Positions 7,931 through 26,484 of a stretch of DNA of 64,000 nt are shown here, piece after piece. The notes under the pieces are model-generated. The model was given only the letters and a program-made list of their open reading frames with translations. It made no database searches and was not told the DNA's origin. The position numbers and the translations under genes are program-made. Location of the stretch: the NCBI RefSeq assembly GCF_025060375.1, contig NZ_JANXCG010000062.1, positions 30,855 to 94,854 of the forward strand, in the 5' to 3' direction. The first letter of the stretch is position 1, and every line of letters begins with the position of its first letter. Source of the stretch: Meiothermus sp. GTDB lineage: Bacteria; Deinococcota; Deinococci; Deinococcales; Thermaceae.

Positions 7931-8848
7931 ATGCTGGAGGGGATGCAAGGGGCGGCCCGAATGCTGTTCACGATCCTCCTGATTCTGGCAGGGCTGACCT
8001 GGGGGCTATCCATGTGGGGCTGGGCCTGGGGCCAGCGCAGCGGGGGCGGGGTGGGGGGCCGAGGGGGCTTTTCCGCGCCCCGCAGCCTGCCCTCGGTCCC
8101 GCGGGTCAACCCCGCCCCAACCCCCTCCTGGCCCCTGCCGACCCCAACCTACCCAAGCCCCAGACCGCCCATCTACGTGGCTCCAGGCACCGGCCCAAGC
8201 CGGGGGTTTGACCTGGTGGCCCTCCTGTTGATTGGAGGGATTGTGCTGCTCACCCTCTACATGGTGCGGGGCCTCAAACGAGCAGGCACCGGGGATGAGG
8301 AGGCCACGGTAGCCCGGCTGCGGCTTGCCATCCTCTACTCCCCCACCCTCCAGCAACGCTTGCGCAGGCTGGCCGAAGAGGCCGATACCGAGAGCGTGCG
8401 GGGCCTGGCCGACCTGGTGGACAACGCCGCGGTGCTCCTGCTGCGCGAAGCCCCGGGGTGGCGCTTCGGCCAGTACGAGGTCTGGCAAGGCCCACTGGAA
8501 GAGGCCGAGGGCCGCTTCGACGCCTGGATGAGCGAGACCCGGGCGGAGTTCGTGGAGACCTTCCAGCATTTTGAGGGGCGGAAGGAGGTGCACAACGACT
8601 ACCGACCCCAAGCTGAGCCCGACGGGCGGTACATCCTGGCCACCCTGCTCCTGGCGGTGCGGGGCGGGCTGCCGCCGGTGCCCACCCCCTTGCGCCGGGA
8701 AGGAGCCAAGGCCGCACTGCTGGCCCTCACCACCTCGAGCCCTACCAACACCCTAGCCAGCTACCTAGCCTGGACGCCCGAAGCCCCCGGCGAGGCGCTG
8801 ACCGAGGGGGAGCTGCTCAAGGGCTGGCCCCAGCTCGAGCTGCTCTGA
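7931..8848 (+). CDS. DUF1517-family protein (signal peptide, Gly/Pro-rich region, one TM helix); exact start uncertain
   Basis: N-terminal hydrophobic stretch, SGGGVGGRGGFS, a TM segment, then RLRLAILY..LQQRLRRLAEEADT..GLADLVDNAAVLLLR, which resembles DUF1517. Confidence 0.7.
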   Translation: MLEGMQGAARMLFTILLILAGLTWGLSMWGWAWGQRSGGGVGGRGGFSAPRSLPSVPRVNPAPTPSWPLPTPTYPSPRPPIYVAPGTGPSRGFDLVALLLIGGIVLLTLYMVRGLKRAGTGDEEATVARLRLAILYSPTLQQRLRRLAEEADTESVRGLADLVDNAAVLLLREAPGWRFGQYEVWQGPLEEAEGRFDAWMSETRAEFVETFQHFEGRKEVHNDYRPQAEPDGRYILATLLLAVRGGLPPVPTPLRREGAKAALLALTTSSPTNTLASYLAWTPEAPGEALTEGELLKGWPQLELL

Positions 8849-9299
8849 CCGCCTCCTCTATCGCCTCGTAAGGGGGCTCCTGGGAGGGAACCTCAGCCAC
8901 CCAGGCCCAGACCACCCGCCCCTGAGGCCCCACCACATAGGCCGCCCGCTGGGAAAAACCAGGCAGGCCCTTCAGGCTGATCTCCAGACCAAAAGCCCGG
9001 GTAGCCTCGCGGTTGTAGTCGGAGAGCAGGGGAAAACTCAGCCCTAGCTTTTCCGCATAGGCCCCCAGCGTCCAGGGGGTGTCCACGCTGATTCCGTAGA
9101 CCCGTGCCCCCAGGGCGTTGTAGGTGGCAAGCCCATCCCGCACGGCGCAAAGCTCCCTCTCGCAAACCCGGGTGTGCGCCGCCGGGAAGAACAGGAGGAC
9201 CAAAGGGCCATCCCCTGCGAGCTCGGGAAGCCGGCAGGGCTCTACGCTGGGAGTGTACACGACAACATCGGGCAGAAGGTCGCCTACCTGAACTGCCAT
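8817..9299 (-). CDS. Peroxiredoxin (AhpC/TSA, BCP-like)
   Basis: FFPAAHTRVCERELC (PxxxTxxC) and LLSDYNREATRAFG. Confidence 0.9.
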   Translation of the reverse strand: MAVQVGDLLPDVVVYTPSVEPCRLPELAGDGPLVLLFFPAAHTRVCERELCAVRDGLATYNALGARVYGISVDTPWTLGAYAEKLGLSFPLLSDYNREATRAFGLEISLKGLPGFSQRAAYVVGPQGRVVWAWVAEVPSQEPPYEAIEEAVRAARAGASP

Positions 9300-9311: not shown

Positions 9312-9479
9312 CCCCACATGCCCTGGGCCAACCGTGGGGTACTGAGGAGTGGCCCACAGCCCGCCCTGGGCGGTGGGGCTGGCCCTGGGAGGCTACGCCT
9401 TCATCTTCCGCCGGCTCGAGGCCGGGCTCCGGGCCGCGCGGGGGCCTAGGGCCAGAAAAAGTGTGCTACCTCGCATTCC

Positions 9480-9514
9480 TATAGTTGAAACCTCATTATT
9501 TTAGAGCTAAATAA
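9480..9514 (+). promoter_or_regulatory. AT-rich promoter/operator region of the anthranilate cluster
   Basis: TATAGT at 9480-9485 and palindrome TTTAG-AG-CTAAA at 9500-9511 in an otherwise GC-rich context. Confidence 0.45.
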
Positions 9515-9554
9515 AAAGTGCGGGCAGGGACCAACGTCTGCCTTGGGGGAGAGG

Positions 9555-11888
9555 ATGAGGATCGTCTGCATCGGTGGTGGCCCGGCGGGGCTTTATTTCG
9601 CCCTGCTGATGAAAAAGCAGAACCCGGCGCACGAGATCACCGTGCTCGAGCGCAACCGCCCCGACGATACCTTCGGCTGGGGGGTGGTCTTCTCTGACCA
9701 AACGCTGGGGAACCTGGAAAAGGCCGACTACCCCACCTACGACCAGATCCGGCAAGCCTTCCACCACTGGGACGACATAGAGATCCACTTCAAGGGCCAG
9801 GTCATTCGCTCCGGGGGCCACGGCTTTGTGGGTATCGGGCGGAAAAAGCTCTTGAACATCCTGCAAGACCGGTGCTTGGAGCTGGGGGTCAACCTGGTCT
9901 TCCAAACCGAGGTCACCGACGACGAGGCAGTGGCGCGGGCGTACCGGGCCGACCTGGTCATCGCCGCAGACGGCATAAACAGCCGCACCCGAAAAAAGTA
10001 CGAGGCCACCTTCAAGCCCGATGTGGACGTTCGCAAGTGCCGCTTTGTCTGGCTGGGAACCCACCAGCCGTTCCCGGCCTTTACCTTCGCCTTCGAGAAA
10101 ACCGAGTGGGGCTGGTTCCAGGCCCACGCCTACCAGTTCGACCCCGAAACCTCCACCTTCATTGTGGAAACCCCAGAAACGGTCTGGCAAAAGGCCGGGC
10201 TGGACCGGATGAGCCAGGAAGAGGGCATCGCCTTTTGCGAGAGGCTCTTCGCCAAGTACCTAGGCGGGCACAAGCTGATGTCCAACGCCCGGCACCTCAG
10301 GGGCTCGGCCATCTGGATTAGGTTCTCCCGTGTGGTCTGCGAGAGCTGGGTCCACTGGAACGGCCGGGTTCCGGTGGTGCTGATGGGCGACGCAGCCCAC
10401 ACCGCCCACTTCTCCATCGGCAGCGGCACCAAGCTTGCGCTGGAGGACGCCATCGAGCTGGCGCGCACCTTTGAGCGGATAGGCGACACCCCAGCCCAGC
10501 TGCGGGAGGTGCTGGAGGAGTACCAGCGGGTGCGGCGGGTGGAGGTGCTCAGGCTGCAAAACGCCGCGCGCAACTCCACCGAGTGGTTTGAGAACGTGGA
10601 GCGCTACAGCCATTTCGAGGCCCCGCAGTTCGCCTACAGCCTGCTTACCCGCTCGCAACGGGTCTCCCACGAAAACCTCAGGCTGCGGGACAGGAAGTAC
10701 CTGGAGGGCTACGAGGCCTGGCTGGCCGAGCGGGCTGGGCTGCCCAGAAAGCCCATCCCGCCCATGTTCCTCCCCTTCCGCCTGCGGGGGCTGGAGCTCA
10801 AGAACCGGGTGGTGGTCTCGCCCATGGCCATGTACTCGGCCAAGGACGGCCTGGTGAACGACTTCCACCTGGTCCACCTGGGGGCCAGGGCCCTGGGCGG
10901 GGCGGCTTTGGTTTTCACCGAGATGACCGCCCCCTCGCCCGACGGACGCATCACCCCGGGCTGTGCAGGGCTGTGGAGCGAGGCCCACATGCGGGCCTAC
11001 AAGCGCATCGTGGACTTTGTCCACGAGCACACCGACGCCAAGATAGCCCTCCAGCTCGGGCATGCTGGGCCCAAGGGCTCCACCCAGGTGGGCTGGGAGG
11101 CCATCGACGAGCCCCTACCCGAGGGTAACTGGCCCCTCATCGCCCCCTCCCCCATCCCCTACGGCCCCAACAACCAGGTGCCGCGCGAGATGACCCGGGA
11201 GGACATGGAGCGGGTCAAGGCCGACTTCGTACGAGCGGCTTTGTGGGCGGTTGAGGCTGGCTTCGACTGGCTCGAGCTGCACTGCGCCCACGGATACCTC
11301 CTCTCGGCTTTCATCTGCCCCCTCACCAACCACCGCACCGACGAGTATGGGGGCAGCCTGGAGAACCGCTGCCGCTACCCGCTGGAGGTCTTCAGGGCCC
11401 TGAGGGCCGTCTGGCCCGAGCACCTGCCCATGTCGGTGCGCATCTCGGCCCACGACTGGGCCCCGGGGGGCAACACCCCCGACGACGCGGTGGAGATAGC
11501 CCGCCTCTTCAAGGAAGCCGGCTGCGACCTGATCGACGTTTCCTCCGGCCAGACCACCCGGCTGGCCCGGCCCATCTACGGGCGGATGTACCAGACCCCC
11601 TTCGCCGACCGCATCCGCAACGAGGTGGGCATCGCCACCATGGCGGTGGGGGCCATCTACGAGGCCGACCACGTGAACTCCATCATCGCCGCCGGGCGGG
11701 CTGACCTGTGCGCCATCGCTCGGCCCCACCTAGCCGACCCCCACTGGACGCTGAACCAGGCTGCCCGGCTGGGCTACACCGAGGTTGGGTGGCCCAAGCA
11801 GTACCTCTCGGGCAAGGCCCAGCTCGAGCGCAACCTGGCCCGGGCCTCGCTCGAGCGGGCCGAGGAGCTGGCCATCCGCGGCGTATGA
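9555..11888 (+). CDS. Bifunctional anthraniloyl-CoA monooxygenase/reductase (salicylyl-CoA 5-hydroxylase family, AbmA-like)
   Basis: N-terminal FAD monooxygenase ([25 protein letters not shown]) fused to an OYE-like flavin oxidoreductase ([20 protein letters not shown]). Start at ATG 9555. Confidence 0.9.
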
Positions 11889-12649
11889 GACCCCTGGAAG
11901 ACCGCCACGCCCTCATCACCGGCGCCAGCCGGGGCATCGGGGCGGCCATTGCCAGGGCCCTGGGCGAGGCCGGTGCGGCCCTGAGCCTGTTAGGCCGCGA
12001 CCAGAAGGCCCTCCTGCAGCGGGCCCGGGAGCTTGGGGGAAGGGCGCACGTGGAGGTCTGCGACGTGACCGACCCCGAGGCGGTGCACCGGGCAGTGAGG
12101 GGCGCGGAGGCAGCCTGGGGACCGGTGCACATCCTGGTCAACAACGCCGGCCAGGCCGAAAGCTGCCCCTTCCCCAAGACCGAGCTGGAGCTGTGGGAGC
12201 GGATGCTAAGGGTCAACCTGACCGGGGCCTTCCTCTGCACCCGGGCCGTCCTGCCGGGAATGCTCCAGGCCGGCTGGGGACGCATCGTGAACGTGGCCAG
12301 CACCGCTGGGCTGAAGGGCTACCCTTACGTCGCCGCGTACGTGGCGGCTAAGCACGGCCTGGTGGGCCTGACCCGGGCTCTAGCGCTGGAGCTGGCCCAA
12401 AAGAACATCACCGTCAACGCGGTCTGCCCTGGCTTCACTGAGACTGGGCTGCTGGAGGACAGCATAGCCCGCATCGTGGAGAAGACCGGCCGCAGCCCGG
12501 GCGAGGCTCGGGAAGAGCTGGTCCGGGCCAACCCCCAGGGCCGCTTCGTGAGGCCCGAAGAGGTAGCCCAGGCCGTGCTGTGGCTGGCGCTGCCCGGCTC
12601 AGCAGCCGTCAACGGGCAGGCCATTGCGGTAGCAGGAGGGGAAGTCTAG
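11885..12649 (+). CDS. SDR oxidoreductase (3-hydroxyacyl-CoA dehydrogenase-like)
   Basis: [12 protein letters not shown] and YVAAK motifs. ATGA overlap with the upstream stop fixes the start. Confidence 0.92.
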
Positions 12650-13135
12650 ATGACCACGCTGGAGAAGGACCTGGAGACCCGCCTGGCCGAAGACCACCAC
12701 CAGGCCATCAAGCTCTGGTTACGGATGCTGACCTGCACCAACCTCATCACCGGAAAGATCCGGGGCCGGTTGCGCGAGAACTTCGCAACCACCCTACCCC
12801 GCTTTGACCTGCTGGCCCAGCTCGAGCGCCACCCCGAGGGGCTTCGGATGGGGGAGCTCTCCCAGCGCATGATGGTCACCACCGGAAACGTTACCGGGAT
12901 TGCCGACCAGCTCGAGGCTGAAGGGCTGGTGCGGCGCGAGGCCGACCCCAAGGACCGCCGCTCGGTGGTGCTGCGGCTTACCCCTAAGGGGCAGGCCGTC
13001 TTCAGCGCAATGGCCAAAGTCCACGAGGGCTGGGTCATCGAGTTCTTCGAGGGACTCTCCACGGAAGAAAAGGAGACCCTCTACGCCCTTTTGGGCAAAC
13101 TCAAGCGCCACCTAAACGGGAGGAGGAGCCCATGA
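12650..13135 (+). CDS. MarR-family transcriptional regulator
   Basis: [37 protein letters not shown]. Confidence 0.92.
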
Positions 13136-13962
13136 AGCGGCCCGACGGCAGCATCGCCCTGGCCGACTACCAGGCCCAGCACTTCCTCTGGCAGGTAGAG
13201 GACCGGGTAGCCACCCTGACCCTAAACCGCCCGGAGCGGAAGAACCCCCTCACCTTTGAGTCCTACGCCGAGCTGCGCGACCTATTCCGGGCCCTCCCCT
13301 ACGCCACAGACGTGCGGGCGGTGGTGCTCACCGGAGCCCAGGGAAACTTCTCCTCTGGGGGTGATGTGTACGAGATCATCGGCCCCCTGACCCAGATGAA
13401 GACCCCGGAGCTGCTGGCCTTTACCCGCATGACCGGGGATGTGGTCAAGGCCATGCGGAACTGCCCGCAGCCCATTGTAAGCGCGGTGGACGGGGTGTGC
13501 GCCGGGGCCGGGGCGATTTTGGCCATGGCCTCAGACCTCCGCTTCGGCACCGCCCGCAGCAGGACCGCCTTCCTCTTCGCACGGGTGGGGCTGGCCGGAT
13601 GCGACATGGGGGCCTGCGCCATGCTACCCCGCATCATCGGGCAGGGCCGGGCCGCCGAACTCCTGTACACGGGCCGGAGCATGAGCGGCGAGGAGGGGCT
13701 GGCCTGGGGCTTCTTCAACCGGCTTTGCGAGCCCGAGACCCTGCTGGAGGAGGCCCAGGCCTTCGCCCGGGAGCTGGCCACCGGCCCCACCTTCGCCCAC
13801 GCCATGACCAAGCGAATGCTCCACCAGGAGTGGAGCATGGGGCTGGACGAAGCTATAGAGGCCGAAGCTCAGGCCCAGGCCCTGTGCATGGCTACCCAGG
13901 ACTTCCGCCGGGCCTACGAGGCCTTCGTGGCCAGGGAGAAGCCGGTATTCCAGGGGGACTAG
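13132..13962 (+). CDS. Enoyl-CoA hydratase/isomerase family
   Basis: [26 protein letters not shown] and LLYTGR crotonase motifs. Confidence 0.92.
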
Positions 13963-15144
13963 ATGAACCGCGCGCACCTCGAGTGGCCCTTCTTTGAGCC
14001 AGAGCACCGCCGGCTGGCCCAGGAGGTCTGGGCCTGGGCCCGAAAAAACCTAGGGGAACACCCCGAGACCGACGTGGACCGCACCTGCCAGCGCCTGGTG
14101 CGGGCTTTGGGGGAGGCTGGCTTCATCCGCTATGCGGTAGGGGGTCAGGCCTACGGCGGGGCCAAGGAGACCATTGACACCCGTGCGGTCTGCCTCATCC
14201 GCGAGGCCCTGGCCTACCACCACGGCCTAGCCGACTTCGCCTTTGCCATGCAGGGGCTGGGCTCAGGGGCCATCACCCTCTGCGGCAACGAGGCGCAAAG
14301 GGCTCGCTACCTGCCCAAGGTAGCCCAGGGCCAGGCCATCGCGGCTTTTGCCCTATCCGAACCCCAGGCCGGCTCGGATGTGGGGGGCCTGTCCACCCTG
14401 GCTCAGCAGGAGGGCGGGACCTACGTGCTGAACGGCGAGAAAACCTGGATATCCAACGGGGGCATCGCCGACTTCTACGTGGTCTTTGCCCGCGCCCCAG
14501 GAAGCCAGGGGTCCAAGGGAATAAGCGCCTTTGTGGTGGACGCGGACACCCCGGGCCTCGAGGTAGCCGAGCGGCTCGAGGTGATGGCCCCCCACCCCCT
14601 GGCCACCCTGCGCTTCCGGGACTGCCGCATACCCCGGGCCCAACGCCTGGGCGAGGAAGGGGAAGGCTTCAAAATCGCTATGCAGACCCTGGACATCTTC
14701 CGCACCTCGGTGGCCGCGGCGGCTTTGGGCTTCGCCCGGCGGGCGCTGGACGAGGCCCTGGCCCGCGCCACCACCCGCCGGATGTTCGGCCAGACCCTGG
14801 CCGAATTCCAGCTCACCCAAGCCAAGCTGGCCCAGATGGCCGTCCAGATTGACACCGCAGCCCTCCTCACCTACCGGGCAGCCTGGCTGCGCGACCAGGG
14901 CAGGCGGGTAACCCTGGAAGCGGCTATGGCCAAACTCACCGCCACCGAACACGCTCAGCAGGTGATTGACGCCGCGGTGCAGCTGTGGGGCGGTCTGGGG
15001 GTGAAAAAGGGACAGGTGGTGGAGTCGCTTTACCGCGAAATCCGAGCCCTGCGCATCTACGAGGGGGCCAGCGAGGTGCAGCAGCTCATCATCGCCCGCG
15101 AACTGCTAAAAGCCTACCAAAAGCCGGAGGAGGTTTCGGTATGA
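13963..15144 (+). CDS. Acyl-CoA dehydrogenase
   Basis: [29 protein letters not shown] and [10 protein letters not shown]. Confidence 0.94.
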
Positions 15145-15175
15145 GGCCAAAGCGACCAACCAAAGGAGGGCCGGT

Positions 15176-16795
15176 ATGGGCCACACCGCCCATGTAGACA
15201 CCTTTGCTCGGGACAACCTGCCGCCCAGGTCCGAGTGGCCCGAGCTCATCTTCAAGCTACCTGAGCTGGCCTACCCCGAGCGGCTCAACGCCGCCACCGA
15301 GCTGCTCGACCGGATGGCCGAGCGGCACCCCGAGCGCACCTGCCTGCTGGCCCCGGGGATCCGCTGGAGCTACCGGGAGCTTCTGGAAAAGGCCAACCGC
15401 ATCGCCCATGTGCTGGTGGAGGATATGGGTCTGGTGCCGGGCAACCGGGTGCTCTTGCGGGCCCCCAACCACCCCATGCTGGTGGCCGCCTGGTTCGCGG
15501 TGCTGAAAGCTGGGGGCATCGCCGTCACCACCATGCCCCTGCTGCGGAGCAAGGAGCTCACCGAGGTGATCACCAAAGCCCAGGTCAGCCACGCCCTGTG
15601 CGACGCTCGCCTGGGGGAAGAGCTGGAGAACGCTCGAGCGGCCTGCCCCAGCCTGCAGCAGGTGCTCTACTGGGGCGAAGGGGGCGGCCTGGAGGGGCGG
15701 ATGGAGGGCAAGCCCACGGGGTTCCAAAACCTAGACACAGCCAGCGACGACGTGGCCCTCATCGCCTTTACCTCAGGCACCACCGGCAAGCCCAAGGGCT
15801 GCGTGCACTTCCACCGCGACCTGCTGGCGGTTTGCGACACCTTCGGCAAGCACATCCTTAGGGCCTCCCCCGAGGACACCTTCATCGGAAGCCCGCCCTT
15901 GGCGTTTACCTATGGGCTTGGGGGGCTGGTGCTCTTTCCCATGCGCATCGGGGCCAAAAGCGTGCTGTTGGAGCGGGCCAGCCCGGAACTGCTGCTCCCG
16001 GCCATTGCGGAGTTCAGGGCCAGCGTCCTCTTCACCTCCCCCACCGCCTACCGGGCCATGGCCGCCCAGGCCCGGGGACACGAGCTCTCCTCGCTTAGGA
16101 AGTGCGTCTCGGCCGGGGAGTTTCTACCCCCCTCCACCCGCAAGCTCTGGAAAGAGGCCACCGGAATCGAGATGATAGACGGCATCGGGGCCACCGAGAT
16201 GCTGCACATCTTCATCTCCCACACCGAGGAGGAGGCCAAACCGGGGGCCACTGGAAAGCCCGTGCCCGGCTATGAGGCCCGCGTGGTGGACGAGGAAGGC
16301 AACCCGCTTCCTCCCGGGGTGGTGGGGCGGCTGGCGGTGCGGGGGCCCACCGGCTGCCGCTACCTGGATGACCCCCGCCAGCGCAACTACGTGCAGAAGG
16401 GCTGGAACATCACCGGAGACGCCTATTTGGTGGATGAGGAGGGCTACTTCGTCTACCAGGCTCGTACCGACGACATGATCATCTCGGCAGGCTACAACAT
16501 CGCCGCACCGGAGGTGGAGGACGCCCTCCTGCTGCACCCAGCCGTAGCGGAGTGCGCGGTGGTGGGGGCCCCCGACCCCGAGCGGGGCCAGATTGTGAAG
16601 GCCTACGTGGTGCTGCGGCCTGGCTTTGCCCCCTCGAGCGAGCTCTCAAAGGAACTACAAGACTTTGTCAAACAGCAAATCGCTCCCTACAAGTACCCCC
16701 GGGCCATCGAATTCCGCGAGAGCCTGCCCCGCACCCAGACCGGTAAGCTACAGCGGTACATCCTGCGGCAGGAGGCCCAGCAGGTGAAAGGCTGA
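15176..16795 (+). CDS. 2-aminobenzoate(anthranilate)-CoA ligase, benzoate-CoA ligase family
   Basis: AFTSGTTGKPKG, GIGATE, TGDAY and PRTQTGKLQR motifs, plus cluster context. Confidence 0.85.
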   Translation: MGHTAHVDTFARDNLPPRSEWPELIFKLPELAYPERLNAATELLDRMAERHPERTCLLAPGIRWSYRELLEKANRIAHVLVEDMGLVPGNRVLLRAPNHPMLVAAWFAVLKAGGIAVTTMPLLRSKELTEVITKAQVSHALCDARLGEELENARAACPSLQQVLYWGEGGGLEGRMEGKPTGFQNLDTASDDVALIAFTSGTTGKPKGCVHFHRDLLAVCDTFGKHILRASPEDTFIGSPPLAFTYGLGGLVLFPMRIGAKSVLLERASPELLLPAIAEFRASVLFTSPTAYRAMAAQARGHELSSLRKCVSAGEFLPPSTRKLWKEATGIEMIDGIGATEMLHIFISHTEEEAKPGATGKPVPGYEARVVDEEGNPLPPGVVGRLAVRGPTGCRYLDDPRQRNYVQKGWNITGDAYLVDEEGYFVYQARTDDMIISAGYNIAAPEVEDALLLHPAVAECAVVGAPDPERGQIVKAYVVLRPGFAPSSELSKELQDFVKQQIAPYKYPRAIEFRESLPRTQTGKLQRYILRQEAQQVKG

Positions 16796-16797
16796 AG

Positions 16798-17205
16798 ATG
16801 GCGACCAGGGACATCCAGATTCTACAACCCCCCGGCTGGCCCAAGCCCAAAGGCTACGCCAACGGCATAGCGGCGCGAGGACGGCTGGTCTTCATCGCGG
16901 GCATGGTCGGCTGGAACCGGGAAGGGGTTTTTGAGAGCGACGAATTCGTGGCCCAAGCCTACCAGGCCCTGAAAAATGTCCTGGAAACCCTGGCTGAGGC
17001 CGGTGGCCGGCCCGAACACCTGGTGCGGCTCACCTGGTTCGTGACCAGCAAGGCGGAGTACCTGGCCTCGCTGGAGGCCCTGGGCGAAGCCTATCGGGCC
17101 CTGATGGGCCGCCACTACCCCGCCATGACCGTGGTGGAGGTGAAGGCCCTCTTGGAGGACCGGGCCAAGGTGGAGATTGAGGCCACCGCGGTTATCCCGG
17201 AGTGA
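16798..17205 (+). CDS. RidA/YjgF-family protein
   Basis: LVFIAGMVGW, LAEAGG, YPAMTVVEV..L and KVEIEATA. Confidence 0.9.
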   Translation: MATRDIQILQPPGWPKPKGYANGIAARGRLVFIAGMVGWNREGVFESDEFVAQAYQALKNVLETLAEAGGRPEHLVRLTWFVTSKAEYLASLEALGEAYRALMGRHYPAMTVVEVKALLEDRAKVEIEATAVIPE

Positions 17206-17214
17206 GGAGGTCCT

Positions 17215-18444
17215 GTGGTTCCCGCCGAGATACAGGCCCTTGACCGGGCCGACCCCCTGGCCGCCAAGCGGGAAGCCTTTGTGATTCCCGAAGGGCTGAT
17301 CTATCTGGACGGCAACTCCCTGGGGCCCCTGCCCAAGCGGGTGGCGGAGCGGATGCGGGAGGTGGTGGAGGGGCAGTGGGGGCAGGACCTGATCCGGAGC
17401 TGGAACCTGCACGGCTGGATTGGCCTGCCGCAGAGGCTCGGGGCCCGAATCGCCCGGCTCATAGGGGCCGAGGCAGACGAGGTGGTGGTGGCCGACTCCA
17501 CCTCGGTCAACCTCTTCAAGGTGCTTCTGGCCGCACTGGAGCTGCGCCCCGGCCGCAGGGTCATCCTATCCGAGGTGGACAACTTCCCCACCGACCTTTA
17601 CATCGCCCAGGGCCTGCGGGAGCTTCGGGAAGGCTGCGAGCTGCGCTTTGTGCCGAGGGAGGAAATTGAAGCCGCCCTGGACGAGGAGACCGCGGTGCTC
17701 CTGCTCACCGAGGTGGACTACCGCACCGGATACCGCCACGACATGGCCCACCTGACCCGGCTGGCTCAGGCCAGAGGGGCGCTGGTGGTCTGGGACCTGG
17801 CCCACAGCGCGGGGGCCTTCCCGGTACACCTGAACGCCTGCGGGGTGGACTTCGCGGTGGGCTGCGGCTACAAGTACCTGAACGGAGGTCCAGGAGCGCC
17901 CGCCTTTCTCTACGTGGCGCGGCGCCACCAGAAGTCCCTCAAACCCTTCCTGACCGGCTGGATGGGCCACCAAGACCCCTTTGCCTTCAGCGTCACCTAC
18001 ACCCCAGCAGAGGGCCTGCGCCGGATGACCGTGGGCACCCCACCTATCCTCTCCATGAGCGCGCTGGAAGCAGCTTTGGAGGTGTGGGAAGGGGTAGAGA
18101 TGGCGCAGGTACGGGAAAAATCGCTCAGGCTTACCGACTTGTTCATAGAGCGGATGGCCCCCCTGGCGGCCCGCTACGGCCTCGAGCTGGCCACCCCCCT
18201 CGAGCACGCCCGCCGGGGCAGCCAGGTGGCCTACCGCCACCCCGAGGGCTACGCCATCGTGCAGGCCCTTATCGCCCAGGGGGTGGTGGGCGACTTCCGC
18301 CACCCAAACATCCTGCGCTTCGGCTTTGGACCTCTCTACCTGCGCTACGCCGACGTGTACGAGGCGGTGGAGCGGTTCGAGCGGGTGATGGCGCAGGGGC
18401 TCTGGCAGGACCCCCGCTACCGGGAGAAAGCCCAGGTGACCTGA
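17215..18444 (+). CDS. kynU: Kynureninase
   Basis: YLDGNSLG, DSTSVNLFK, WDLAHSAG and GCGYKYLNGGPG (PLP lysine). Confidence 0.95.
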   Translation: MVPAEIQALDRADPLAAKREAFVIPEGLIYLDGNSLGPLPKRVAERMREVVEGQWGQDLIRSWNLHGWIGLPQRLGARIARLIGAEADEVVVADSTSVNLFKVLLAALELRPGRRVILSEVDNFPTDLYIAQGLRELREGCELRFVPREEIEAALDEETAVLLLTEVDYRTGYRHDMAHLTRLAQARGALVVWDLAHSAGAFPVHLNACGVDFAVGCGYKYLNGGPGAPAFLYVARRHQKSLKPFLTGWMGHQDPFAFSVTYTPAEGLRRMTVGTPPILSMSALEAALEVWEGVEMAQVREKSLRLTDLFIERMAPLAARYGLELATPLEHARRGSQVAYRHPEGYAIVQALIAQGVVGDFRHPNILRFGFGPLYLRYADVYEAVERFERVMAQGLWQDPRYREKAQVT

Positions 18445-19268
18445 TGAAGGACACGACCTACCGGACCGCCCACACCGACTTTAGCCGGGAGCTTTCCTAC
18501 GGCGACTACCTTCGGCTGGACGCACTCCTAGAGGCCCAGCAACCCCTGACCAAGGCCCACGACGAGGTGCTCTTCATCGTGGTGCACCAGGTGCAGGAAC
18601 TCTGGATGAAGCTCATCATCCACGAGCTCACCTCGGCGATGGCCTTGCTGGAGGAAGGCGTGGTGGACCCAGCCTTGAAGATGCTCAGCCGGGTCTGCCG
18701 GGCCCAGGAGCAGATGAGCCAAAGCTGGGAGGTGCTGACCACCATGACCCCGGCGGACTACCTGGAGTTCCGCTGGGCCTTCGGCAAAGCCTCGGGGTTT
18801 CAGTCCTATCAGTATCGGCTGATTGAATTCCTCCTTGGCAACAAGCAACCCTTCATGATGCGCCCCCACCGCCACCGGCCCGAGTACGGGAGGCTCGAGC
18901 GGGCCCTGCACAGCCCCAGCCTCTACGACCTCTCCTTGCGGCTCCTCCACAGACGGGGCCTAAGCATCCCCTCGGAGGTGCTGGCGCGCGACTTCGCCCA
19001 GCCCTACCAGCCCCACCCGGCGGTAGCGGAAGCCTGGCTGGCGGTCTACCGCCAAACCGAGCGCTACTGGGAGCTGTACTACCTGGCCGAGAAGCTGGTG
19101 GATGTGGAGGAGAATTTCCGCCGCTGGCGCTTCAACCACCTGACCACCGTGGAGCGCACCATCGGCCACAAACAGGGCACCGGGGGTACCGCCGGCGTCC
19201 CCTATCTGAGGCGGGCCTTGGAGGTCGTGCTCTTCCCCGAGCTCTGGCAGGTGCGGACACTCCTTTAG
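18444..19268 (+). CDS. kynA: Tryptophan 2,3-dioxygenase
   Basis: SYGDYLRLD, HDEVLFIVVHQ, ASGFQSYQYR and KQGTGGTAG. TGATG overlap fixes the start at 18444, not 18084. Confidence 0.96.
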   Translation: MKDTTYRTAHTDFSRELSYGDYLRLDALLEAQQPLTKAHDEVLFIVVHQVQELWMKLIIHELTSAMALLEEGVVDPALKMLSRVCRAQEQMSQSWEVLTTMTPADYLEFRWAFGKASGFQSYQYRLIEFLLGNKQPFMMRPHRHRPEYGRLERALHSPSLYDLSLRLLHRRGLSIPSEVLARDFAQPYQPHPAVAEAWLAVYRQTERYWELYYLAEKLVDVEENFRRWRFNHLTTVERTIGHKQGTGGTAGVPYLRRALEVVLFPELWQVRTLL

Positions 19269-19312
19269 ATGAGGAAAACCCTTATGATGCAGCGAAAACC
19301 GGAGGAGGAAAG

Positions 19313-20479
19313 ATGAAAAAGGCAATCTGGCTGTTAGTCCTTCTGGCCCTCGGCTTCTCGGCATCGCTGGCCCAAACCCGCACGGTCAAGGTCGGCTTCG
19401 TGAGCACCCTCTCAGGTGGAGGGGCTGCTTTGGGCATTGACGTTCGGGACGGTTTCAACCTGGCCATAAGGCTCCTTGGCAACCAGCTCGGGGGGCTGCC
19501 GGTGGAGGTGCTGGTGGCCGACGACCAGCAGAACCCCGACGTAGCCCGCCAGGCGGTGGACCGGATGCTCAAGCGCGACCGGGTGGACTTCATGACCGGT
19601 ATCATCTTCTCCAACGTCCTCCTGGCCGTGGGCGAGGCCATCTTCGAGGAAAAGGTTTTCTACATCAGCCCCAACGCCGGCCCCTCAGAGTACGCCGGGG
19701 AGCAGTGCAGCCCCTACTTCATCAACGTGGCTTGGCAGAACGACAACCTGCACGAGGCGATGGGCCAGTACGTGCAGACCCGCCGCTTCGAGAACGCCTT
19801 CCTGCTGGCCCCCAACTACCCCGCCGGACGCGACGCCCTCACCGGCTTCAAGCGCTTCTTCAAGGGCAAGGTGGTGGCCGAGGTCTACCACCGCTTGGGC
19901 CAGCTCGATTTCTCCGCTGAGATCGCCCAGATCCGCGCGGTGCGGCCCAAGGCGGTCTATGCCTTTGAGCCCGGAGCCATGGGGGTCAACTTCATCAAGC
20001 AGTACGCCGAGGCCGGCCTCTTGCGCGAGATACCCCTCTTCCTACCGGGCTTCTCCGCTGATGCGGACGTAATCCGCGCGGTGGGGCGGGCCATGGTAGG
20101 CATCTACAACAGCTCGCAGTGGGCACTTGAGCTCAACAACCCGGTCAACCAGCGCTTCGTAGAGGAGTTCCGCAAGGCCTATGGCCGCATCCCCACGCTC
20201 TACGCCTCGCAGGGCTACGACGCGGCCCTGCTCCTGGACACCGCCATCAAGGCGGTGGGGGGCGACCTGAGCAAGAAGGATGAGCTGCGCAAGGCCATGC
20301 TGGCCGGATTCAACAGCACCCGCGGGTTCATCCGCTTCAGCCCCAACGGCTACCCCATCCAGAACTACTACCTGCGGCAGGTGATCCAGCAGCCCGGTGG
20401 CGAGATCGTGAACCGGCTGGTGGGAACCATCTTCACCAACCACCGCGACGCCTACGTGGATAGGTGCAAGCTCCGCTAG
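19313..20479 (+). CDS. ABC transporter substrate-binding protein (HAAT/branched-chain type, aromatic-acid subgroup)
   Basis: Signal peptide, VKVGFVSTLSG, DDQQNPD and QGYDAA. Confidence 0.88.
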   Translation: MKKAIWLLVLLALGFSASLAQTRTVKVGFVSTLSGGGAALGIDVRDGFNLAIRLLGNQLGGLPVEVLVADDQQNPDVARQAVDRMLKRDRVDFMTGIIFSNVLLAVGEAIFEEKVFYISPNAGPSEYAGEQCSPYFINVAWQNDNLHEAMGQYVQTRRFENAFLLAPNYPAGRDALTGFKRFFKGKVVAEVYHRLGQLDFSAEIAQIRAVRPKAVYAFEPGAMGVNFIKQYAEAGLLREIPLFLPGFSADADVIRAVGRAMVGIYNSSQWALELNNPVNQRFVEEFRKAYGRIPTLYASQGYDAALLLDTAIKAVGGDLSKKDELRKAMLAGFNSTRGFIRFSPNGYPIQNYYLRQVIQQPGGEIVNRLVGTIFTNHRDAYVDRCKLR

Positions 20480-20481
20480 GT

Positions 20482-21402
20482 ATGCCCCCCTCACTCCTAA
20501 TAGAGCAGCTCCTGAATGGCCTTCAGTTTGGCCTGATGCTCTTCCTGCTGGCCGCTGGCCTCACCCTGGTCTTCGGCATCATGGACATGATCAACCTCGC
20601 CCACGGCTCGCTCTACATGATTGGGGCCTACCTGACCGCAACCTTCGTGGGCCTGCTGGGCAACTTCTGGCTAGCGGTACTCCTGGCGGTCCTGGGCACC
20701 GCCCTTGTCGGGATGCTTTTGGAGCTCAGCGTACTGCGCCAGCTCTACCGGCGCGACCACCTTTCGCAGGTGCTGGCCACCTTCGCGCTCATTCTCATCA
20801 TCAACGAGGTGGTGCGCATCATCTGGGGCTCCCAACCCCTTCTGCTCTCCGCCCCCGAGGGGCTTTCAGGACCGGTGGAGCTCCTGCCGGGGCTGAGCTA
20901 CTCGGCCTACCGGCTCACCATCATCGGGGTGGGGCTTTTGGTGGCGGCGCTCCTCTTCTGGCTGGTCAACCGCACCCGGGTCGGGATGTGGCTCCGGGCC
21001 GGGGCTTCCAACCGCGAGATGGCCCAGGCCATGGGGGTGCCCATCCGCCCCCTCTTCACCCTGCTCTTCGGGGTGGGTGCGGGGCTGTGCGCCGTCGCCG
21101 GGGCCTTCTTGGGGCCCATCCTGGCGGTGCAGATTGGGATGGGCGAGGGCATCCTGATCCTGGCCTTTGTGGTCATCGTGATCGGCGGGATTGGCTCCAT
21201 CAAGGGAGCCCTGGTGGGGGCCCTGCTGGTGGGCACCGTGGACACCGCGGGGCGGGCCTTCCTACCCCTCCTGCTCTCGCAGGTGGCCTCCCCCGAGGTG
21301 GCGGCCAACCTCGGGCCGGCCCTGGCCTCCATCCTGATCTACCTCCTGATGGCGGCGGTGCTCTTCTTCAGACCCCAGGGGCTCTTCCCGGCCCGCACCT
21401 AG
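20482..21402 (+). CDS. LivH-like ABC permease
   Basis: LNGLQFG..AAGLTLVFGIMDMINLAHG and VIGGIGS. Confidence 0.9.
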   Translation: MPPSLLIEQLLNGLQFGLMLFLLAAGLTLVFGIMDMINLAHGSLYMIGAYLTATFVGLLGNFWLAVLLAVLGTALVGMLLELSVLRQLYRRDHLSQVLATFALILIINEVVRIIWGSQPLLLSAPEGLSGPVELLPGLSYSAYRLTIIGVGLLVAALLFWLVNRTRVGMWLRAGASNREMAQAMGVPIRPLFTLLFGVGAGLCAVAGAFLGPILAVQIGMGEGILILAFVVIVIGGIGSIKGALVGALLVGTVDTAGRAFLPLLLSQVASPEVAANLGPALASILIYLLMAAVLFFRPQGLFPART

Positions 21403-21412
21403 GAGGAGCCCG

Positions 21413-22324
21413 ATGCGCTGGCCCCTCCTTCTGTTGGTCCTCTTCCTGCTGGCGTTTCCCCCCATCGCCAGCGCAACGGGGCTCGAGTTCTACCAGGGCC
21501 TCCTGACCAAGATCATGATCCTGGCCCTGGCCGCCAGCAGCCTGAACCTGATCCTGGGGTATGGGGGTATGGTGAGCTTCGGCCACGCCGCCTACTTCGG
21601 CCTGGGGGCCTACGCCGTGGCCATCCTGATGCGCGAAGGGATAAGCTCGGGCTGGGTCATCTGGGGGGTGGCGGTGGGGCTTAGCGCCTTGCTGGCCCTT
21701 CTCATCGGGGCCATCTGCCTGAGGACCCGGGGGGTCTACTTCATCATGATCACCCTGGCCTTCGCCCAGATGATCTACTACCTGGTGGTCTCCTTCAAGC
21801 AGTACGGCGGGGAGGACGGCCTCAGGGCCCGGCGGCCCGAGTTTGGCCTCTTTGAGCTAACCGATACCGCCCTTTACTACCTCAGCCTGGCGGTGCTGGC
21901 CGGGGCCCTGTACCTTCTGCACCGGCTGGTTCACTCGCGCTTTGGGCGGGTGCTCCAGGCCATCCGCGAGAACGAGTCCCGGGCTTTGGCCCTGGGTTAC
22001 CCGGTTTTCCACTTCCAGCTCGTGGCCTTTGTGCTCTCGGGGGCCCTGGCCGGGCTGGCTGGGGCCCTGATGGCCCACTACACCCAGTACGCCTCGCCCA
22101 ACCTGCTGGCCTGGCAGCAGTCCGGCCACCTGATGATGATGGTCATCCTGGGCGGGGTGGGGCAGTTTTGGGGCGGGGTGCTGGGGGCGGCAACGCTCTC
22201 CATCGTGGAGGAGGTCCTGCAGGACCTCACCATCCATTGGCAGCTTGGGGTGGGGCTGATCCTGCTGTTCATCGTGCTCTTCGCCCCCAAAGGGCTGGCC
22301 GGTCTCCTGAGGAGGAGGCCATGA
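21413..22324 (+). CDS. LivM-like ABC permease
   Basis: LNLILGYGGMVSFGHAAYFG, AIRENE and MVILGG. Confidence 0.9.
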   Translation: MRWPLLLLVLFLLAFPPIASATGLEFYQGLLTKIMILALAASSLNLILGYGGMVSFGHAAYFGLGAYAVAILMREGISSGWVIWGVAVGLSALLALLIGAICLRTRGVYFIMITLAFAQMIYYLVVSFKQYGGEDGLRARRPEFGLFELTDTALYYLSLAVLAGALYLLHRLVHSRFGRVLQAIRENESRALALGYPVFHFQLVAFVLSGALAGLAGALMAHYTQYASPNLLAWQQSGHLMMMVILGGVGQFWGGVLGAATLSIVEEVLQDLTIHWQLGVGLILLFIVLFAPKGLAGLLRRRP

Positions 22325-23073
22325 TTCTCCTGGAAACCCAACAGCTCAGCAAGCGGTTCGGCGGGCTGCTGGCAGTCAACAGCTGCAATCTGGAGGTGAG
22401 GGCAGGAGAGGTCCACGCACTAATTGGCCCTAACGGCGCGGGCAAGACCACCCTGCTCAACCTCATAACCGGTGTGCTGGCCCCCAGCAAGGGCCAGATT
22501 CGCTTTGACGGCCAGGAGATCACCCACCTGCCAGCCCATGCCCGGGTGCACCGGGGGCTGGCCCGCACCTTCCAGATCACCAACCTGTTCAAAAACTACA
22601 CCGTGCGGGTGAACCTCGAGCTGGCCGTGCAGGCCCGCCGGGGCAGCAGTTTTCGCTTCTGGCAGCCCGTCGCAAAGGAAAGGGCCCTTACCGAGGAAGC
22701 CTTCCAGGTGGCCGAACGGGTGGGTTTGGGGAGGCGCTTTGAGGTGGTGGCGGGCCAGCTCTCCCACGGGGAGCAGCGGGCCCTCGAGGTGGCCCTGGCC
22801 CTGGCCTCCAAGCCCAAGCTTCTGCTCCTGGACGAGCCCATGGCTGGCATGGGCCCTGAGGAGTCAGCGCGAATGGTGGAGCTTATAGAAAGCCTGCGCC
22901 AAGAGTTCACCATCCTGCTGGTCGAGCACGATATGGACGCCGTCTTCCGGCTGGCCCAGCGCATCTCGGTGCTGGTCTACGGCCAAGTCATCGCCACTGG
23001 AACCCCAGAGGAAATCCGGGCTAACCCCGAGGTGCACAGGGCCTACCTGGGCGACGAAGGGGGTGCGGCGTGA
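22321..23073 (+). CDS. LivG-like ABC ATPase
   Basis: GPNGAGKT, LSHGEQR, LLLDEP and EHD. ATGA overlap fixes the start at 22321. Confidence 0.93.
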   Translation: MILLETQQLSKRFGGLLAVNSCNLEVRAGEVHALIGPNGAGKTTLLNLITGVLAPSKGQIRFDGQEITHLPAHARVHRGLARTFQITNLFKNYTVRVNLELAVQARRGSSFRFWQPVAKERALTEEAFQVAERVGLGRRFEVVAGQLSHGEQRALEVALALASKPKLLLLDEPMAGMGPEESARMVELIESLRQEFTILLVEHDMDAVFRLAQRISVLVYGQVIATGTPEEIRANPEVHRAYLGDEGGAA

Positions 23074-23780
23074 ACCCCTTGCTGCAGATTGAAGGCTTGG
23101 AAGCCTTCTATGGACCCAGCCAGGTGCTCTTTGGGGTGAGCCTCGAGGTCGGCCAGGGCCAGGTAGCCACCCTGCTGGGACGCAATGGCATGGGCAAGAC
23201 GAGCACCGTGCGCTCCATCATGGGCCTCATCCCAACCATGCGAGGCCGTATCCGCTTTGCCGGGCAACCCATTGAGGGCCTGCCTCCAGAGCGAATTGCC
23301 GCCCTAGGCATCGGCCTGGTGCCTGAGGGGCGCCAGATCTTTCCCAACCTCACCGTGGAGGAAAACCTCGTCGCCTTCGCCGCCAACCGCAGCCAAAGCC
23401 CAAACCCCTGGACCCTTGGGCGGGTCTATGAGCTTTTCCCCAGGCTACGGGAGCGGCGCCACCACCTGGGCCACCAGCTTTCCGGAGGCGAGCAGCAGAT
23501 GCTGGCCATTGGCCGGGCCCTCATGACCAATCCCCGCCTGCTCATCCTGGACGAGGCCACCGAGGGCCTGGCCCCCCTGCTGCGCGAGGAAATCTGGCGG
23601 GTACTCCGCCTGCTCAAGGAGGGTGGCCAGACCATACTGGTGATCGACAAGTACCTGGAGCGCCTATTCCCCCTGGCCGACCAGCACACCATCCTGGAGC
23701 GGGGCCGGGTGGTCTGGCAGGGAACCTCCCAAGAGCTCAAGGCTAGCCCCGAGGTTTGGAAGAGGTATCTGAGCGTATGA
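23070..23780 (+). CDS. LivF-like ABC ATPase
   Basis: GRNGMGKT, LSGGEQQMLAIGRAL and LDEATEGLAP. Confidence 0.93.
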   Translation: MNPLLQIEGLEAFYGPSQVLFGVSLEVGQGQVATLLGRNGMGKTSTVRSIMGLIPTMRGRIRFAGQPIEGLPPERIAALGIGLVPEGRQIFPNLTVEENLVAFAANRSQSPNPWTLGRVYELFPRLRERRHHLGHQLSGGEQQMLAIGRALMTNPRLLILDEATEGLAPLLREEIWRVLRLLKEGGQTILVIDKYLERLFPLADQHTILERGRVVWQGTSQELKASPEVWKRYLSV

Positions 23781-24589
23781 GCGAACCCTCCTGGATAGAA
23801 CTCCAGTACAGCCCCCGTCTTACCGTGCCCGACGCGGCCGCATACTTCCAGCGCTGGGCCGAAGCCTCCCGGGTCGCCCGTGAAGCCTTACCCCACCACG
23901 CCAACCTGCGGTACGGCCCAGGCGAGAAGGAAACCCTTGACCTCTTCCCTGCCCCAGAAAGCCGCTACCTGCTCGTCTTCATCCACGGCGGCTACTGGCG
24001 GGCCTTCGATAAGAACGACTTCTCCTGGCTGGCCCCGCCCCTGGTAGAGGCTGGTCTCAGCGTGGCGGTGCTGAACTACGCTCTCTGCCCAGCGGTAACC
24101 ATTCCAGAGATTACCGAGCAGTGTCGCCGGGCAGTGGCCTGGCTGCACCGCGAGGCCCCCCGCTACGGTGCACACGGCCCCTTGCTCATCAGCGGGCACT
24201 CGGCGGGAGGGCACCTGACAGCCGAACTCTTCGCCACCCCCTGGGAAGCCTACGACGTACCCCAGGAGGCCTTCGCAGGGGGCATCGCCATCAGCGGGCT
24301 TTTTGACCTGGAGCCCCTTCTACAGGTGTCCTTCAACACCGAGTTGCGCCTTGACCAAAAGAGCGCCAAGGCCTCGAGCCCCGTTCACAAGCGACCCACC
24401 CTGAAGGTGCCCTTGGTGCTGGCATTAGGGGCGCTGGAATCAGAGGAGTTCCACCGGCAAAGCCAGCTCCTCAACCAGGCCTGGCCCGGGGTCTGTCACG
24501 GGATCATCCGGGTCCCTGAGACCCATCACTTCAGCGTCCTAGACGCCCTGGCTGACCCCAGCAGCCCGCTTTGGCGGCCCTTCTCCTAG
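23777..24589 (+). CDS. Alpha/beta hydrolase, probable AFMID-type kynurenine formamidase
   Basis: FIHGGYW oxyanion motif, GHSAGG nucleophile and HHF. Last gene of the kynU-kynA cluster. Confidence 0.7.
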   Translation: MSEPSWIELQYSPRLTVPDAAAYFQRWAEASRVAREALPHHANLRYGPGEKETLDLFPAPESRYLLVFIHGGYWRAFDKNDFSWLAPPLVEAGLSVAVLNYALCPAVTIPEITEQCRRAVAWLHREAPRYGAHGPLLISGHSAGGHLTAELFATPWEAYDVPQEAFAGGIAISGLFDLEPLLQVSFNTELRLDQKSAKASSPVHKRPTLKVPLVLALGALESEEFHRQSQLLNQAWPGVCHGIIRVPETHHFSVLDALADPSSPLWRPFS

Positions 24590-26474: not shown

Positions 26475-26484
26475 AAAGCCTCCT

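Follow-up and report, generated by a model that had tools for sequence, protein, structure and literature searches.

A fifteen-gene Meiothermus operon predicted to link the kynurenine pathway to CoA-dependent anthranilate degradation

Gene content and organization of the cluster

The genes kynA and kynU, for tryptophan 2,3-dioxygenase and kynureninase, lie in a 64-kb stretch of the genome of Meiothermus sp. (Thermaceae; RefSeq assembly GCF_025060375.1, contig NZ_JANXCG010000062.1, positions 30,855 to 94,854), designated here the window. They are located within a cluster that also carries genes similar to those for the coenzyme A (CoA)-dependent degradation of anthranilate, the abm genes. ORF calls on the 64-kb window gave 15 uninterrupted open reading frames (ORFs) on the plus strand between positions 9555 and 24589 (Table 1). 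Start codons were chosen to agree with profile matches and with Shine-Dalgarno-like sequences. The gaps at successive junctions are -4, 0, -4, 0, 31, 2, 9, -1, 44, 2, 10, -4, -4 and -4 nt, so that neighbouring genes overlap six times, five times by 4 nt (ATGA or GTGA) and once by 1 nt, and are never more than 44 nt apart. Terminator-like sites were at chance level (14, vs 10.5 +/- 3.4 in shuffled sequence).

Pfam searches identified a fusion of an FAD-dependent monooxygenase with an old yellow enzyme (OYE), a short-chain dehydrogenase/reductase (SDR), a MarR regulator, a crotonase, an acyl-CoA dehydrogenase (ACAD), an AMP-forming-type ligase (AMP-ligase) and a Rid/L-PSP protein, together with kynureninase, tryptophan dioxygenase (TDO), a Peripla_BP_6 binding protein, two permeases, two ATPases and, as the 15th gene, an alpha/beta hydrolase. 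The initial annotation, made from the sequence alone, had described 15 tightly packed, often overlapping co-directional genes, and the intact ORFs and the gaps of -4 to 44 nt bore this out. The gene content that it listed (kynA, kynU, an AbmA-like enzyme, ligase, SDR, crotonase, ACAD, MarR and an importer) was likewise matched by the domain searches; the alpha/beta hydrolase had not been named in it.

Table 1. Positions of the clustered genes and of the conserved upstream block in the window
Feature	Position	Strand	Basis
AT-rich promoter/operator-like block upstream of abmA	9458..9520	+	conservation in genus
abmA, 2-aminobenzoyl-CoA monooxygenase/reductase	9555..11888	+	NF006101, Pfam
Short-chain dehydrogenase/reductase, FabG/BadH-like	11885..12649	+	adh_short
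MarR-family regulator	12650..13135	+	MarR profile
Crotonase-superfamily enzyme, PRK08258 family	13132..13962	+	NF006107
Acyl-CoA dehydrogenase	13963..15144	+	three ACAD domains
Aryl-CoA ligase, candidate anthranilate-CoA ligase	15176..16795	+	PDB match 4WV3
Rid (YjgF/L-PSP) family protein	16798..17205	+	Ribonuc_L-PSP
kynU, kynureninase	17215..18444	+	TIGR01814, KYNU_C + Aminotran_5
kynA, tryptophan 2,3-dioxygenase	18444..19268	+	TIGR03036
ABC-importer substrate-binding protein, periplasmic/lipoprotein	19313..20479	+	Peripla_BP_6
ABC-importer permeases, HAAT/Liv-type	20482-21402 and 21413-22324	+	BPD_transp_2
ABC ATPases	22321-23073 and 23070-23780	+	ABC_tran; first also BCA_ABC_TP_C
Alpha/beta hydrolase, candidate AFMID-type arylformamidase	23777..24589	+	BD-FAE/Abhydrolase_3

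Conservation of the gene order and recurrent linkage of kyn and abm genes

In a survey of 25 species-level genomes of the genus, full-length abmA was present in 17, the window's included. Among loci long enough to judge, the identical 15-gene order was found in 12 further species-level genomes at 67-95% amino-acid identity, an arrangement that chance cannot explain. The closest named proteins were those of Meiothermus sp., M. ruber and M. cerbereus (JGI). Two genomes of the genus departed from this order. Meiothermus sp. QL-1 (G020, L105) retains 14 of the 15 genes and lacks kynA both in the operon and in the whole genome; its cluster could process kynurenine or anthranilate, and not tryptophan. 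In G023, the abm core stands by itself at the locus, and kynU-kynA and the hydrolase gene are located elsewhere in the genome.

Loci outside the family were assessed in the best 80 of 569 confirmed relatives, a set without Meiothermus records. They came from Burkholderiales, Chloroflexota, Ca. Sysuimicrobiota and one actinomycete bin, and in 60-69 of the 80 the core abmA-(SDR)-marR-crotonase-ACAD-ligase-rid adjoined abmA at 50-78% identity. The crotonase was found in 69 loci (65-78% identity); marR lay beside abmA in 63 loci, the ligase gene was linked to it in 60, and the SDR gene was present in 35.

Linkage of kyn to abm genes was also found beyond the genus. In two Aggregatilineales bins, kynU sits between the ligase and rid genes and encodes a protein with 54-55% identity to the KynU of the window. 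A proteobacterial bin carries a divergent kynA-kynU pair upstream of the abm module (52-54% identity), and in Ca. Tepidifontimicrobium kynA/kynU lie upstream of abmA, with products only 40%/33% identical to those of the window. The kyn genes have therefore been joined to abm repeatedly and in different orders, and this comparison argues well for a shared pathway. A full-text literature search for kynureninase together with 2-aminobenzoyl-CoA or anthranilate-CoA ligase found no paper on a single-operon form of kyn and abm genes, and nothing relevant was found on this system in Meiothermus.

The close packing could in principle be an accident of gene order, with kynU-kynA serving NAD synthesis or secondary metabolism and having no functional tie to abm. 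The pair does occur alone in Meiothermus species that lack abm, and so can work without it. However, kynU is separated from the preceding rid gene by 9 nt, the kynA start shares 1 nt with the stop codon of kynU, and no terminator signal lies at these junctions. The order is kept across the genus, and kyn-abm linkage extends to other phyla. A search for 3-hydroxyanthranilate dioxygenase gave no match either, but its controls gave none. An accident of this kind is considered very improbable.

Predicted route from tryptophan to beta-oxidation

We consider it likely, from gene content and conserved order, that the 15 genes form one MarR-controlled operon for the breakdown of both tryptophan-derived and imported anthranilate without oxygenolytic ring cleavage. 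As judged by family-level homology, KynA would open the indole ring of tryptophan to give N-formylkynurenine, and KynU would convert kynurenine to anthranilate and L-alanine. Removal of formate between these two steps would require a formamidase, for which the operon hydrolase and/or an unlinked cyclase-type KynB-like protein are the candidates. The ligase would then form anthraniloyl-CoA, and AbmA would hydroxylate and reduce it to 2-amino-5-oxocyclohex-1-ene-1-carboxyl-CoA, two further assignments made at the level of family homology. From this point, a Rid protein with an atypical methionine may hydrolyse the enamine/imine to cyclohexanedione-carboxyl-CoA and ammonia, and the PRK08258 crotonase, the SDR and the ACAD may open the ring and feed the product into beta-oxidation. 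The ABC importer is predicted to bring in anthranilate or a close aromatic acid, and MarR to leave the block at 9458-9520 in response to the substrate or its CoA ester.

Enzymes of the upper pathway

Both kynurenine-pathway enzymes scored above the cut-offs of their profiles, KynU with 319.9 bits on TIGR01814 (cut-off 246.4) and KynA with 403.6 bits on TIGR03036 (cut-off 390.7). A kynureninase and a tryptophan 2,3-dioxygenase are thus present. AbmA matched NF006101 over residues 5-773 with 1410 bits (cut-off 1078). It is a single fused polypeptide, with FAD_binding_3 at 7-315 and Oxidored_FMN at 408-736 in Pfam, the fusion that is the hallmark of the abm pathway. The two halves matched separate PDB entries, the N-terminal FAD-monooxygenase that of VioD and the C-terminal half those of thermophilic-type OYEs, and the PDB search gave no full-length AbmA structure. 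Relatives of AbmA are named "anthraniloyl-CoA monooxygenase" by JGI. For the ligase, the best PDB match was 4WV3, "Anthranilate-CoA ligase" (1e-95, 324.6 bits), and benzoate-CoA ligases came second with 270 bits or less.

Several of the same searches weigh against the proposed route. The NCBI name for NF006101 is "salicylyl-CoA 5-hydroxylase/oxidoreductase", and the substrate identity of AbmA rests on context. The ligase scored 350 bits on the profile of the benzoate-CoA ligase subfamily, just under the cut-off of 375, and its identity to the solved anthranilate ligase is approximately 40%, a value estimated by eye from the alignment. Taken with the PDB ranking, the ligase is most likely an anthranilate-CoA ligase.

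If the family name were taken at face value, the AbmA homologue would be a salicylyl-CoA 5-hydroxylase, the cluster would degrade salicylate or another ortho-substituted benzoate, and kynU-kynA would be unrelated neighbours. Besides the name, which derives from SdgC, the salicylyl-CoA 5-hydroxylase of Streptomyces sp. WA46, this is favoured by the binding protein of the importer, whose relatives bind salicylate (PMC3223731). Against it stand the presence inside the operon of kynU, whose product yields anthranilate, the closeness of the ligase to anthranilate-CoA ligase, and the invariance within the module of a deaminase-family protein that is sensible only for an amino-substituted ring. No gentisate-pathway gene or cupin dioxygenase was found among the 15 genes, in a search that covered the cluster. 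The founding fused enzyme of Azoarcus reportedly acts on 2-aminobenzoyl-CoA, and this too was counted against salicylyl-CoA as the substrate. The probability of salicylate degradation as the function of the cluster is judged to be very low.

The CoA-dependent route is the only recognizable fate of anthranilate in this genome, since a search of the 99.8%-complete assembly found no AntA-type anthranilate dioxygenase (best score 143 bits, cut-off 672). The use of tryptophan without catechol chemistry, as proposed in the initial annotation, agrees with this search. Its further proposal of a unit leading from tryptophan through kynurenine and anthranilate to anthraniloyl-CoA in a Thermaceae genome is supported by the profile cut-offs and by the ligase match.

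Other oxygenase genes were observed elsewhere in the genome. Two adjacent genes of the intradiol-dioxygenase family (G000:C35:1088-2190), in an arrangement typical of protocatechuate dioxygenase, probably encode protocatechuate 3,4-dioxygenase. A Rieske oxygenase of a type other than AntA is encoded at G000:C81:14931-15518. Together these genes indicate a wider repertoire for the catabolism of aromatic acids.

A Met-type Rid protein and candidate enzymes of the lower pathway

The beta-oxidation-type enzymes, MarR, the Rid/L-PSP protein and the ABC binding protein that characterize abm clusters are all encoded within the operon. The SDR, the ACAD and MarR were identified clearly at the family level only. 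The SDR matched adh_short (7e-62) and, among NCBIfam models, 3-hydroxybutyrate dehydrogenase and BadH-type 2-hydroxycyclohexanecarboxyl-CoA dehydrogenase, with no match reaching its equivalog cut-off; it is a candidate keto/hydroxy oxidoreductase of an alicyclic CoA intermediate. The crotonase scored 500.6 bits on NF006107 (cut-off 330), with PaaG-type isomerases as its next-best relatives in both NCBIfam and the PDB, and is a candidate hydratase or ring-opening hydrolase. The named families nearest to the ACAD were acryloyl-CoA reductase and cyclohexane-1-carbonyl-CoA dehydrogenase, both below cut-off.

The Rid protein (Ribonuc_L-PSP, 4e-22) had been labelled RidA in the initial annotation, and this label did not hold. 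On the RidA profile TIGR00004, which has a cut-off of 106 bits, the protein reached 49.7. Methionine (motif PAM) takes the place of the catalytic Arg105 of RidA, an arginine that is retained in the housekeeping RidA encoded in the genome (motif PAR). The sub-cut-off score and the replacement of Arg105 rule out RidA proper. Methionine occupied this position in 82/82 of the abm-linked Rid homologues that could be extracted, and by its sequence the operon protein belongs to a distinct, abm-specific Rid subfamily. Arg105 of E. coli TdcF/RidA is the arginine that binds the carboxylate of the substrate, and the survey of the Rid family that describes it does not mention anthranilate (PMC4433059). 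Independence from a free carboxylate would suit a Met-type protein to a CoA thioester as its substrate. We propose that the Met-type Rid deaminates the enamine product of AbmA, in agreement with the cyclohexanedione-carboxyl-CoA-like ester detected in anthranilate-grown Arthrobacter (PMC3534580).

Knowledge of the steps after AbmA is a point on the opposite side, as its lack led the authors of GapMind to omit this anthranilate route (PMC9007349). We propose tentatively, as an idea that may well prove wrong, that the operon defines a minimal gene set for the lower aerobic anthraniloyl-CoA pathway. In this set, the Met-type Rid would act as a CoA-thioester enamine/imine deaminase, the PRK08258 crotonase would open the ring hydrolytically, and the hydrolase with the motif HGGYW would be a bacterial AFMID-type arylformamidase that replaces cyclase-type KynB, as in D. 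radiodurans.

The importer and the candidate operator

The importer is a five-component HAAT-type ABC system. Its permeases matched BPD_transp_2 (2e-38 and 3e-42), and all of its components fell far under the equivalog cut-offs of the Liv (LivJ/LivK, LivG/LivF) and Urt (UrtA-E) systems, so that it was assigned to neither. The binding protein (Peripla_BP_6, 1e-74) had its best PDB matches in 4EVQ/4EVR (3e-55) and 4EY3/4EYG/4EYK. The 4EVQ/4EVR and 4EY3-type structures are of binders of benzoate derivatives from Rhodopseudomonas palustris. Known ligands of RPA0668/HbaE are benzoate, 4-hydroxybenzoate and salicylate (PMC3223731). In other genomes, ABC genes at 55-74% identity adjoin abm modules that have no kyn genes nearby. 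The likeness to aromatic-acid binders and the linkage to kyn-less abm modules make anthranilate a more likely substrate than tryptophan, and the importer probably takes up the former. A caution is that the specificity of the binding protein is drawn from a similarity of only about 190 bits. The importer noted in the initial annotation is thus present in the operon, and its role can be refined: its linkage places it with the abm module, and the resemblance of its binding protein points to anthranilate rather than tryptophan.

MarR was recognized by a profile match of 2e-15. The AT-rich block upstream of abmA holds the dyad TTTAG-AG-CTAAA at 9498-9512, a 15-mer that occurs once in the window. 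The block is kept upstream of abmA across the loci of the genus and is missing from the single locus without marR (G023). A consensus scan upstream of abmA found no sigma-70-like promoter site and, terminator-like sites being at chance level, the regulatory region was placed solely by conservation. The block is likely to be the MarR operator and the single promoter region of the operon.

Candidates for the formamidase

The alpha/beta hydrolase encoded by the last gene carries the motifs HGGYW and GHSAGG, which are invariant, as are the candidate Ser/Asp/His residues, among 9 aligned relatives. Its PDB matches included 2PBL (1e-41) and the Drosophila kynurenine formamidase 4E11 (6.5e-18), and its relatives are named "arylformamidase" by JGI. 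On chromosome II of D. radiodurans (NZ_OV024759.1; L124:3378-7780), an ACAD gene is followed by kynU-kynA-hydrolase with 4-nt overlaps and no abm genes. The hydrolase encoded there, annotated merely as "alpha/beta hydrolase", is 44.5% identical to that of the operon. D. radiodurans served as a control in the KynB profile search, which gave no match to cyclase-type KynB in that species, and the hydrolase of this well-studied bacterium is a strong candidate for its missing formamidase. Two cluster-bearing genomes of the genus, G009 and G020, also have no cyclase-type gene, which favours a formamidase role of the operon hydrolase.

Other observations argue against a dedicated role of the operon hydrolase in the kynurenine pathway. 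A cyclase-type KynB-like gene is located on another contig of the same genome (G000:C25:13778-14377; L108:1438-2100), unlinked to kynU-kynA. Its product scored 214.6 bits on TIGR03035, just under the cut-off of 223, and all but two of the 25 genomes surveyed in the genus (23 of 25) have the gene, those without abm among them. Across the genus, the distribution of the hydrolase follows that of the abm and ABC modules rather than that of kynUA. Its occurrence coincides exactly with that of abmA, and of the 7 genomes without it at least 4 retain kynU-kynA. It also persists in a genome of the family that has neither kynU nor kynA (G076). In Betaproteobacteria, relatives with 44-56% identity are encoded in ACAD-GST-FAH-hydrolase(-TetR) operons, often right after the abm module.

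An exclusive role in the kynurenine pathway is weakened by G076 and by G044, a second genome of the family in which the hydrolase gene accompanies abm genes without kynU-kynA. The opposite idea, that the hydrolase is unrelated to the kyn genes, is weakened by the kynU-kynA-hydrolase operon of D. radiodurans. On balance, we favour, with some reserve, an arylformamidase activity for the operon hydrolase, possibly a broad one on aryl-formyl or aryl-acyl substrates. The tryptophan route had been called complete in the initial annotation. Completeness depends on a formamidase, for which the operon hydrolase is a good candidate and the unlinked KynB-like protein a second one.

Examples of the betaproteobacterial ACAD-GST-FAH-hydrolase unit were seen at L029:16882-21350, L119:7309-10840 and L121:7364-11598, with a TetR gene often following it. 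In L013, L021, L028, L029 and L063 an abm module immediately precedes the unit, which is solitary elsewhere. The unit could serve further lower-pathway or tryptophan-related chemistry.

Modular construction and origin of the operon

Two genomes of the same family, G044 and G076, carry abm, ABC and hydrolase genes without kynU-kynA in the cluster. In G076 (genus g14, 2.4 Mb; L123 = G076:C4:1-20000), genes for the substrate-binding protein, two permeases, two ATPases and the hydrolase are followed by abmA-SDR-marR-crotonase-ACAD-ligase-rid at 53-66% identity, and no kynU or kynA was found genome-wide. The abm and ABC modules of G076 look like a separate, more divergent acquisition. Since ABC and abm modules occur without kyn genes, the operon is read from these comparisons as a mosaic of three modules, a seven-gene abm core and an importer-hydrolase module with kynU-kynA inserted between them.

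Under another explanation, the operon serves mainly the uptake and degradation of external anthranilate or N-acyl/N-formyl-anthranilates. The kynU-kynA pair would then be a later addition that trickles in endogenous tryptophan or kynurenine, and the hydrolase an aryl-acylamidase or a CoA-rescuing thioesterase. This would account for the resemblance of the binding protein to aromatic-acid binders, for the kyn-less ABC, hydrolase and abm clusters of G044 and G076, the latter without kynU or kynA anywhere in its genome, for the loss of kynA from QL-1 with retention of the rest, and for the covariation of the hydrolase with abmA and not with kynU in the genus. An alpha/beta-fold N-acetylanthranilate amidase, which is reportedly encoded near anthranilate-CoA genes on the Arthrobacter quinaldine plasmid, was also counted in its favour. 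Conversely, 13 species-level genomes of the genus, the window's included, have retained kynU-kynA inside the operon with close junctions, abm modules have acquired kyn genes in several different arrangements, and D. radiodurans ties the same hydrolase family to kynU-kynA in the absence of abm genes. Service mainly to external substrates is considered rather unlikely. It and the breakdown of both tryptophan-derived and imported anthranilate, the function that we prefer, are not mutually exclusive.

Horizontal import of the cluster had been suggested in the initial annotation. Within the family, full-length AbmA was found in 17/26 genomes of Meiothermus (g1), 1/4 of g11, 1/32 of g14 and none of three other genera, and in 0/16 genomes from four other families of the order. 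In an unrooted FastTree phylogeny of 95 AbmA sequences, in which all branches are short, the genus forms one well-supported clade that is nested with Chloroflexota, Casimicrobiaceae and Sysuimicrobiota sequences in a family dominated by Burkholderiales. The sampling of this tree is limited, as it draws only on the best 80 of the 569 confirmed relatives, a set without Meiothermus records. Plasmids and megaplasmids carry the gene as well: 240 such records encode AbmA, and roughly half of these are predicted to be mobilizable or conjugative. In sequence, the KynU of the genus stands nearer to its abm-linked counterparts in Chloroflexota (approximately 54%) than to the KynU of a sister family with a kynB-kynU pair (40%). 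In the KynU tree, species without abm nest among cluster-bearing species, which points to a subsequent loss of their abm and ABC modules. No trace of a recent import was seen in base composition: the GC content of the cluster is 0.662 vs 0.651 in the rest of the window, and its GC content at third codon positions (GC3) is 0.86 vs 0.73-0.86 in flanking genes. An import is thus plausible for the abm part, given its patchy distribution and the AbmA tree, but not a recent one, given the native GC and GC3 and the single clade of the genus. It is plausible that the abm part was acquired horizontally long ago and then descended vertically within the genus, with loss or reshaping in some species.

Only the two closest relatives have the same genes on either side of the cluster, which thus stays intact in changing surroundings. 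Divergent from the operon on its 5' side is a peroxiredoxin gene (8817-9299, minus strand). Upstream of it lies a gene for a DUF1517 protein (7931-8848), which is kept at this place only in the two closest relatives (L095, L105). On the other side, a convergent acetyl-CoA synthetase gene (24591-26519, minus strand) has its stop 1 nt from the last gene of the operon, which leaves no room for terminators on either strand.

Implications

Databases already contain both half-pathways as well as the idea of joining them, and most of the genes receive their names from automated annotation. The textbook picture is unchanged, and annotation is filled in. What the analysis adds is the Met-type Rid signature, a likely anthranilate importer, and a candidate formamidase of the alpha/beta type, the family known from animals and yeast, tied to kynU-kynA in Deinococcota. 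To these can be added the joining of kynurenine genes to the anthraniloyl-CoA route on more than one occasion. Tools for automated pathway annotation pass over the degradation of tryptophan by this route because its later steps lack assigned enzymes (PMC9007349). With a single conserved operon from thermophiles, the choice of enzymes for these steps comes down to four small ones: Rid, crotonase, SDR and ACAD. Proteins of a thermophile are likely to be stable enough for reconstitution, which makes the operon a compact, thermostable test bed for the lower pathway.

Comparison with known systems

The aerobic CoA-dependent anthranilate route has been known since about 1990. The abm operons of Azoarcus evansii, reportedly described by Schuhle and colleagues in 2001, are said to encode a fused monooxygenase/OYE-reductase, a 2-aminobenzoate-CoA ligase, three beta-oxidation-type enzymes, a MarR-like regulator, a "translation inhibitor" (Rid/L-PSP) and an ABC binding protein. 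The same kinds of genes are all present in Meiothermus. The Meiothermus operon differs in the insertion of kynU and kynA, in a full ABC system with two permeases and two ATPases, and in the terminal AFMID-like hydrolase, and its host is a thermophilic member of the Deinococcota rather than a betaproteobacterium.

The bacterial kynurenine ("anthranilate") pathway encoded by kynA-kynB-kynU is said to have been set out by Kurnasov and colleagues in 2003. It has the tryptophan dioxygenase and kynureninase equivalogs in common with the Meiothermus operon. In contrast to that pathway, the cyclase-type, metal-dependent KynB is not encoded in the operon, and anthranilate is predicted to enter the CoA route instead of being passed through anthranilate dioxygenase to catechol. 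SdgC belongs to the same NF006101 family as AbmA. The sdg cluster of Streptomyces sp. WA46 reportedly pairs it with gentisate 1,2-dioxygenase, whereas the Meiothermus cluster has no gene for that enzyme and encodes a kynureninase and a Rid protein.

The first two enzymes of the CoA route of anthranilate, and the beta-oxidation proposed to follow them, have been described (PMC3534580, PMC4539516). The same CoA-thioester route operates in Arthrobacter sp. Rue61a, where CoA-metabolome data support deamination to cyclohexanedione-carboxyl-CoA (PMC3534580). In that strain, unlike in the route predicted here, anthranilate arises from quinaldine and not from kynurenine, no kyn genes are reported in the cluster, and the ligases were assayed, whereas the Meiothermus ligase is known from its sequence (PMC3534580). 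The kynU-kynA-hydrolase operon of D. radiodurans resembles the Meiothermus operon in its hydrolase family and its 4-nt overlaps, and differs from it in having no abm module and no ABC importer and in the ACAD gene upstream. The KynU of D. radiodurans is probably also of a different type from that of the window, as judged from the sister-family genome with a kynB-kynU pair, whose KynU is 40% identical.

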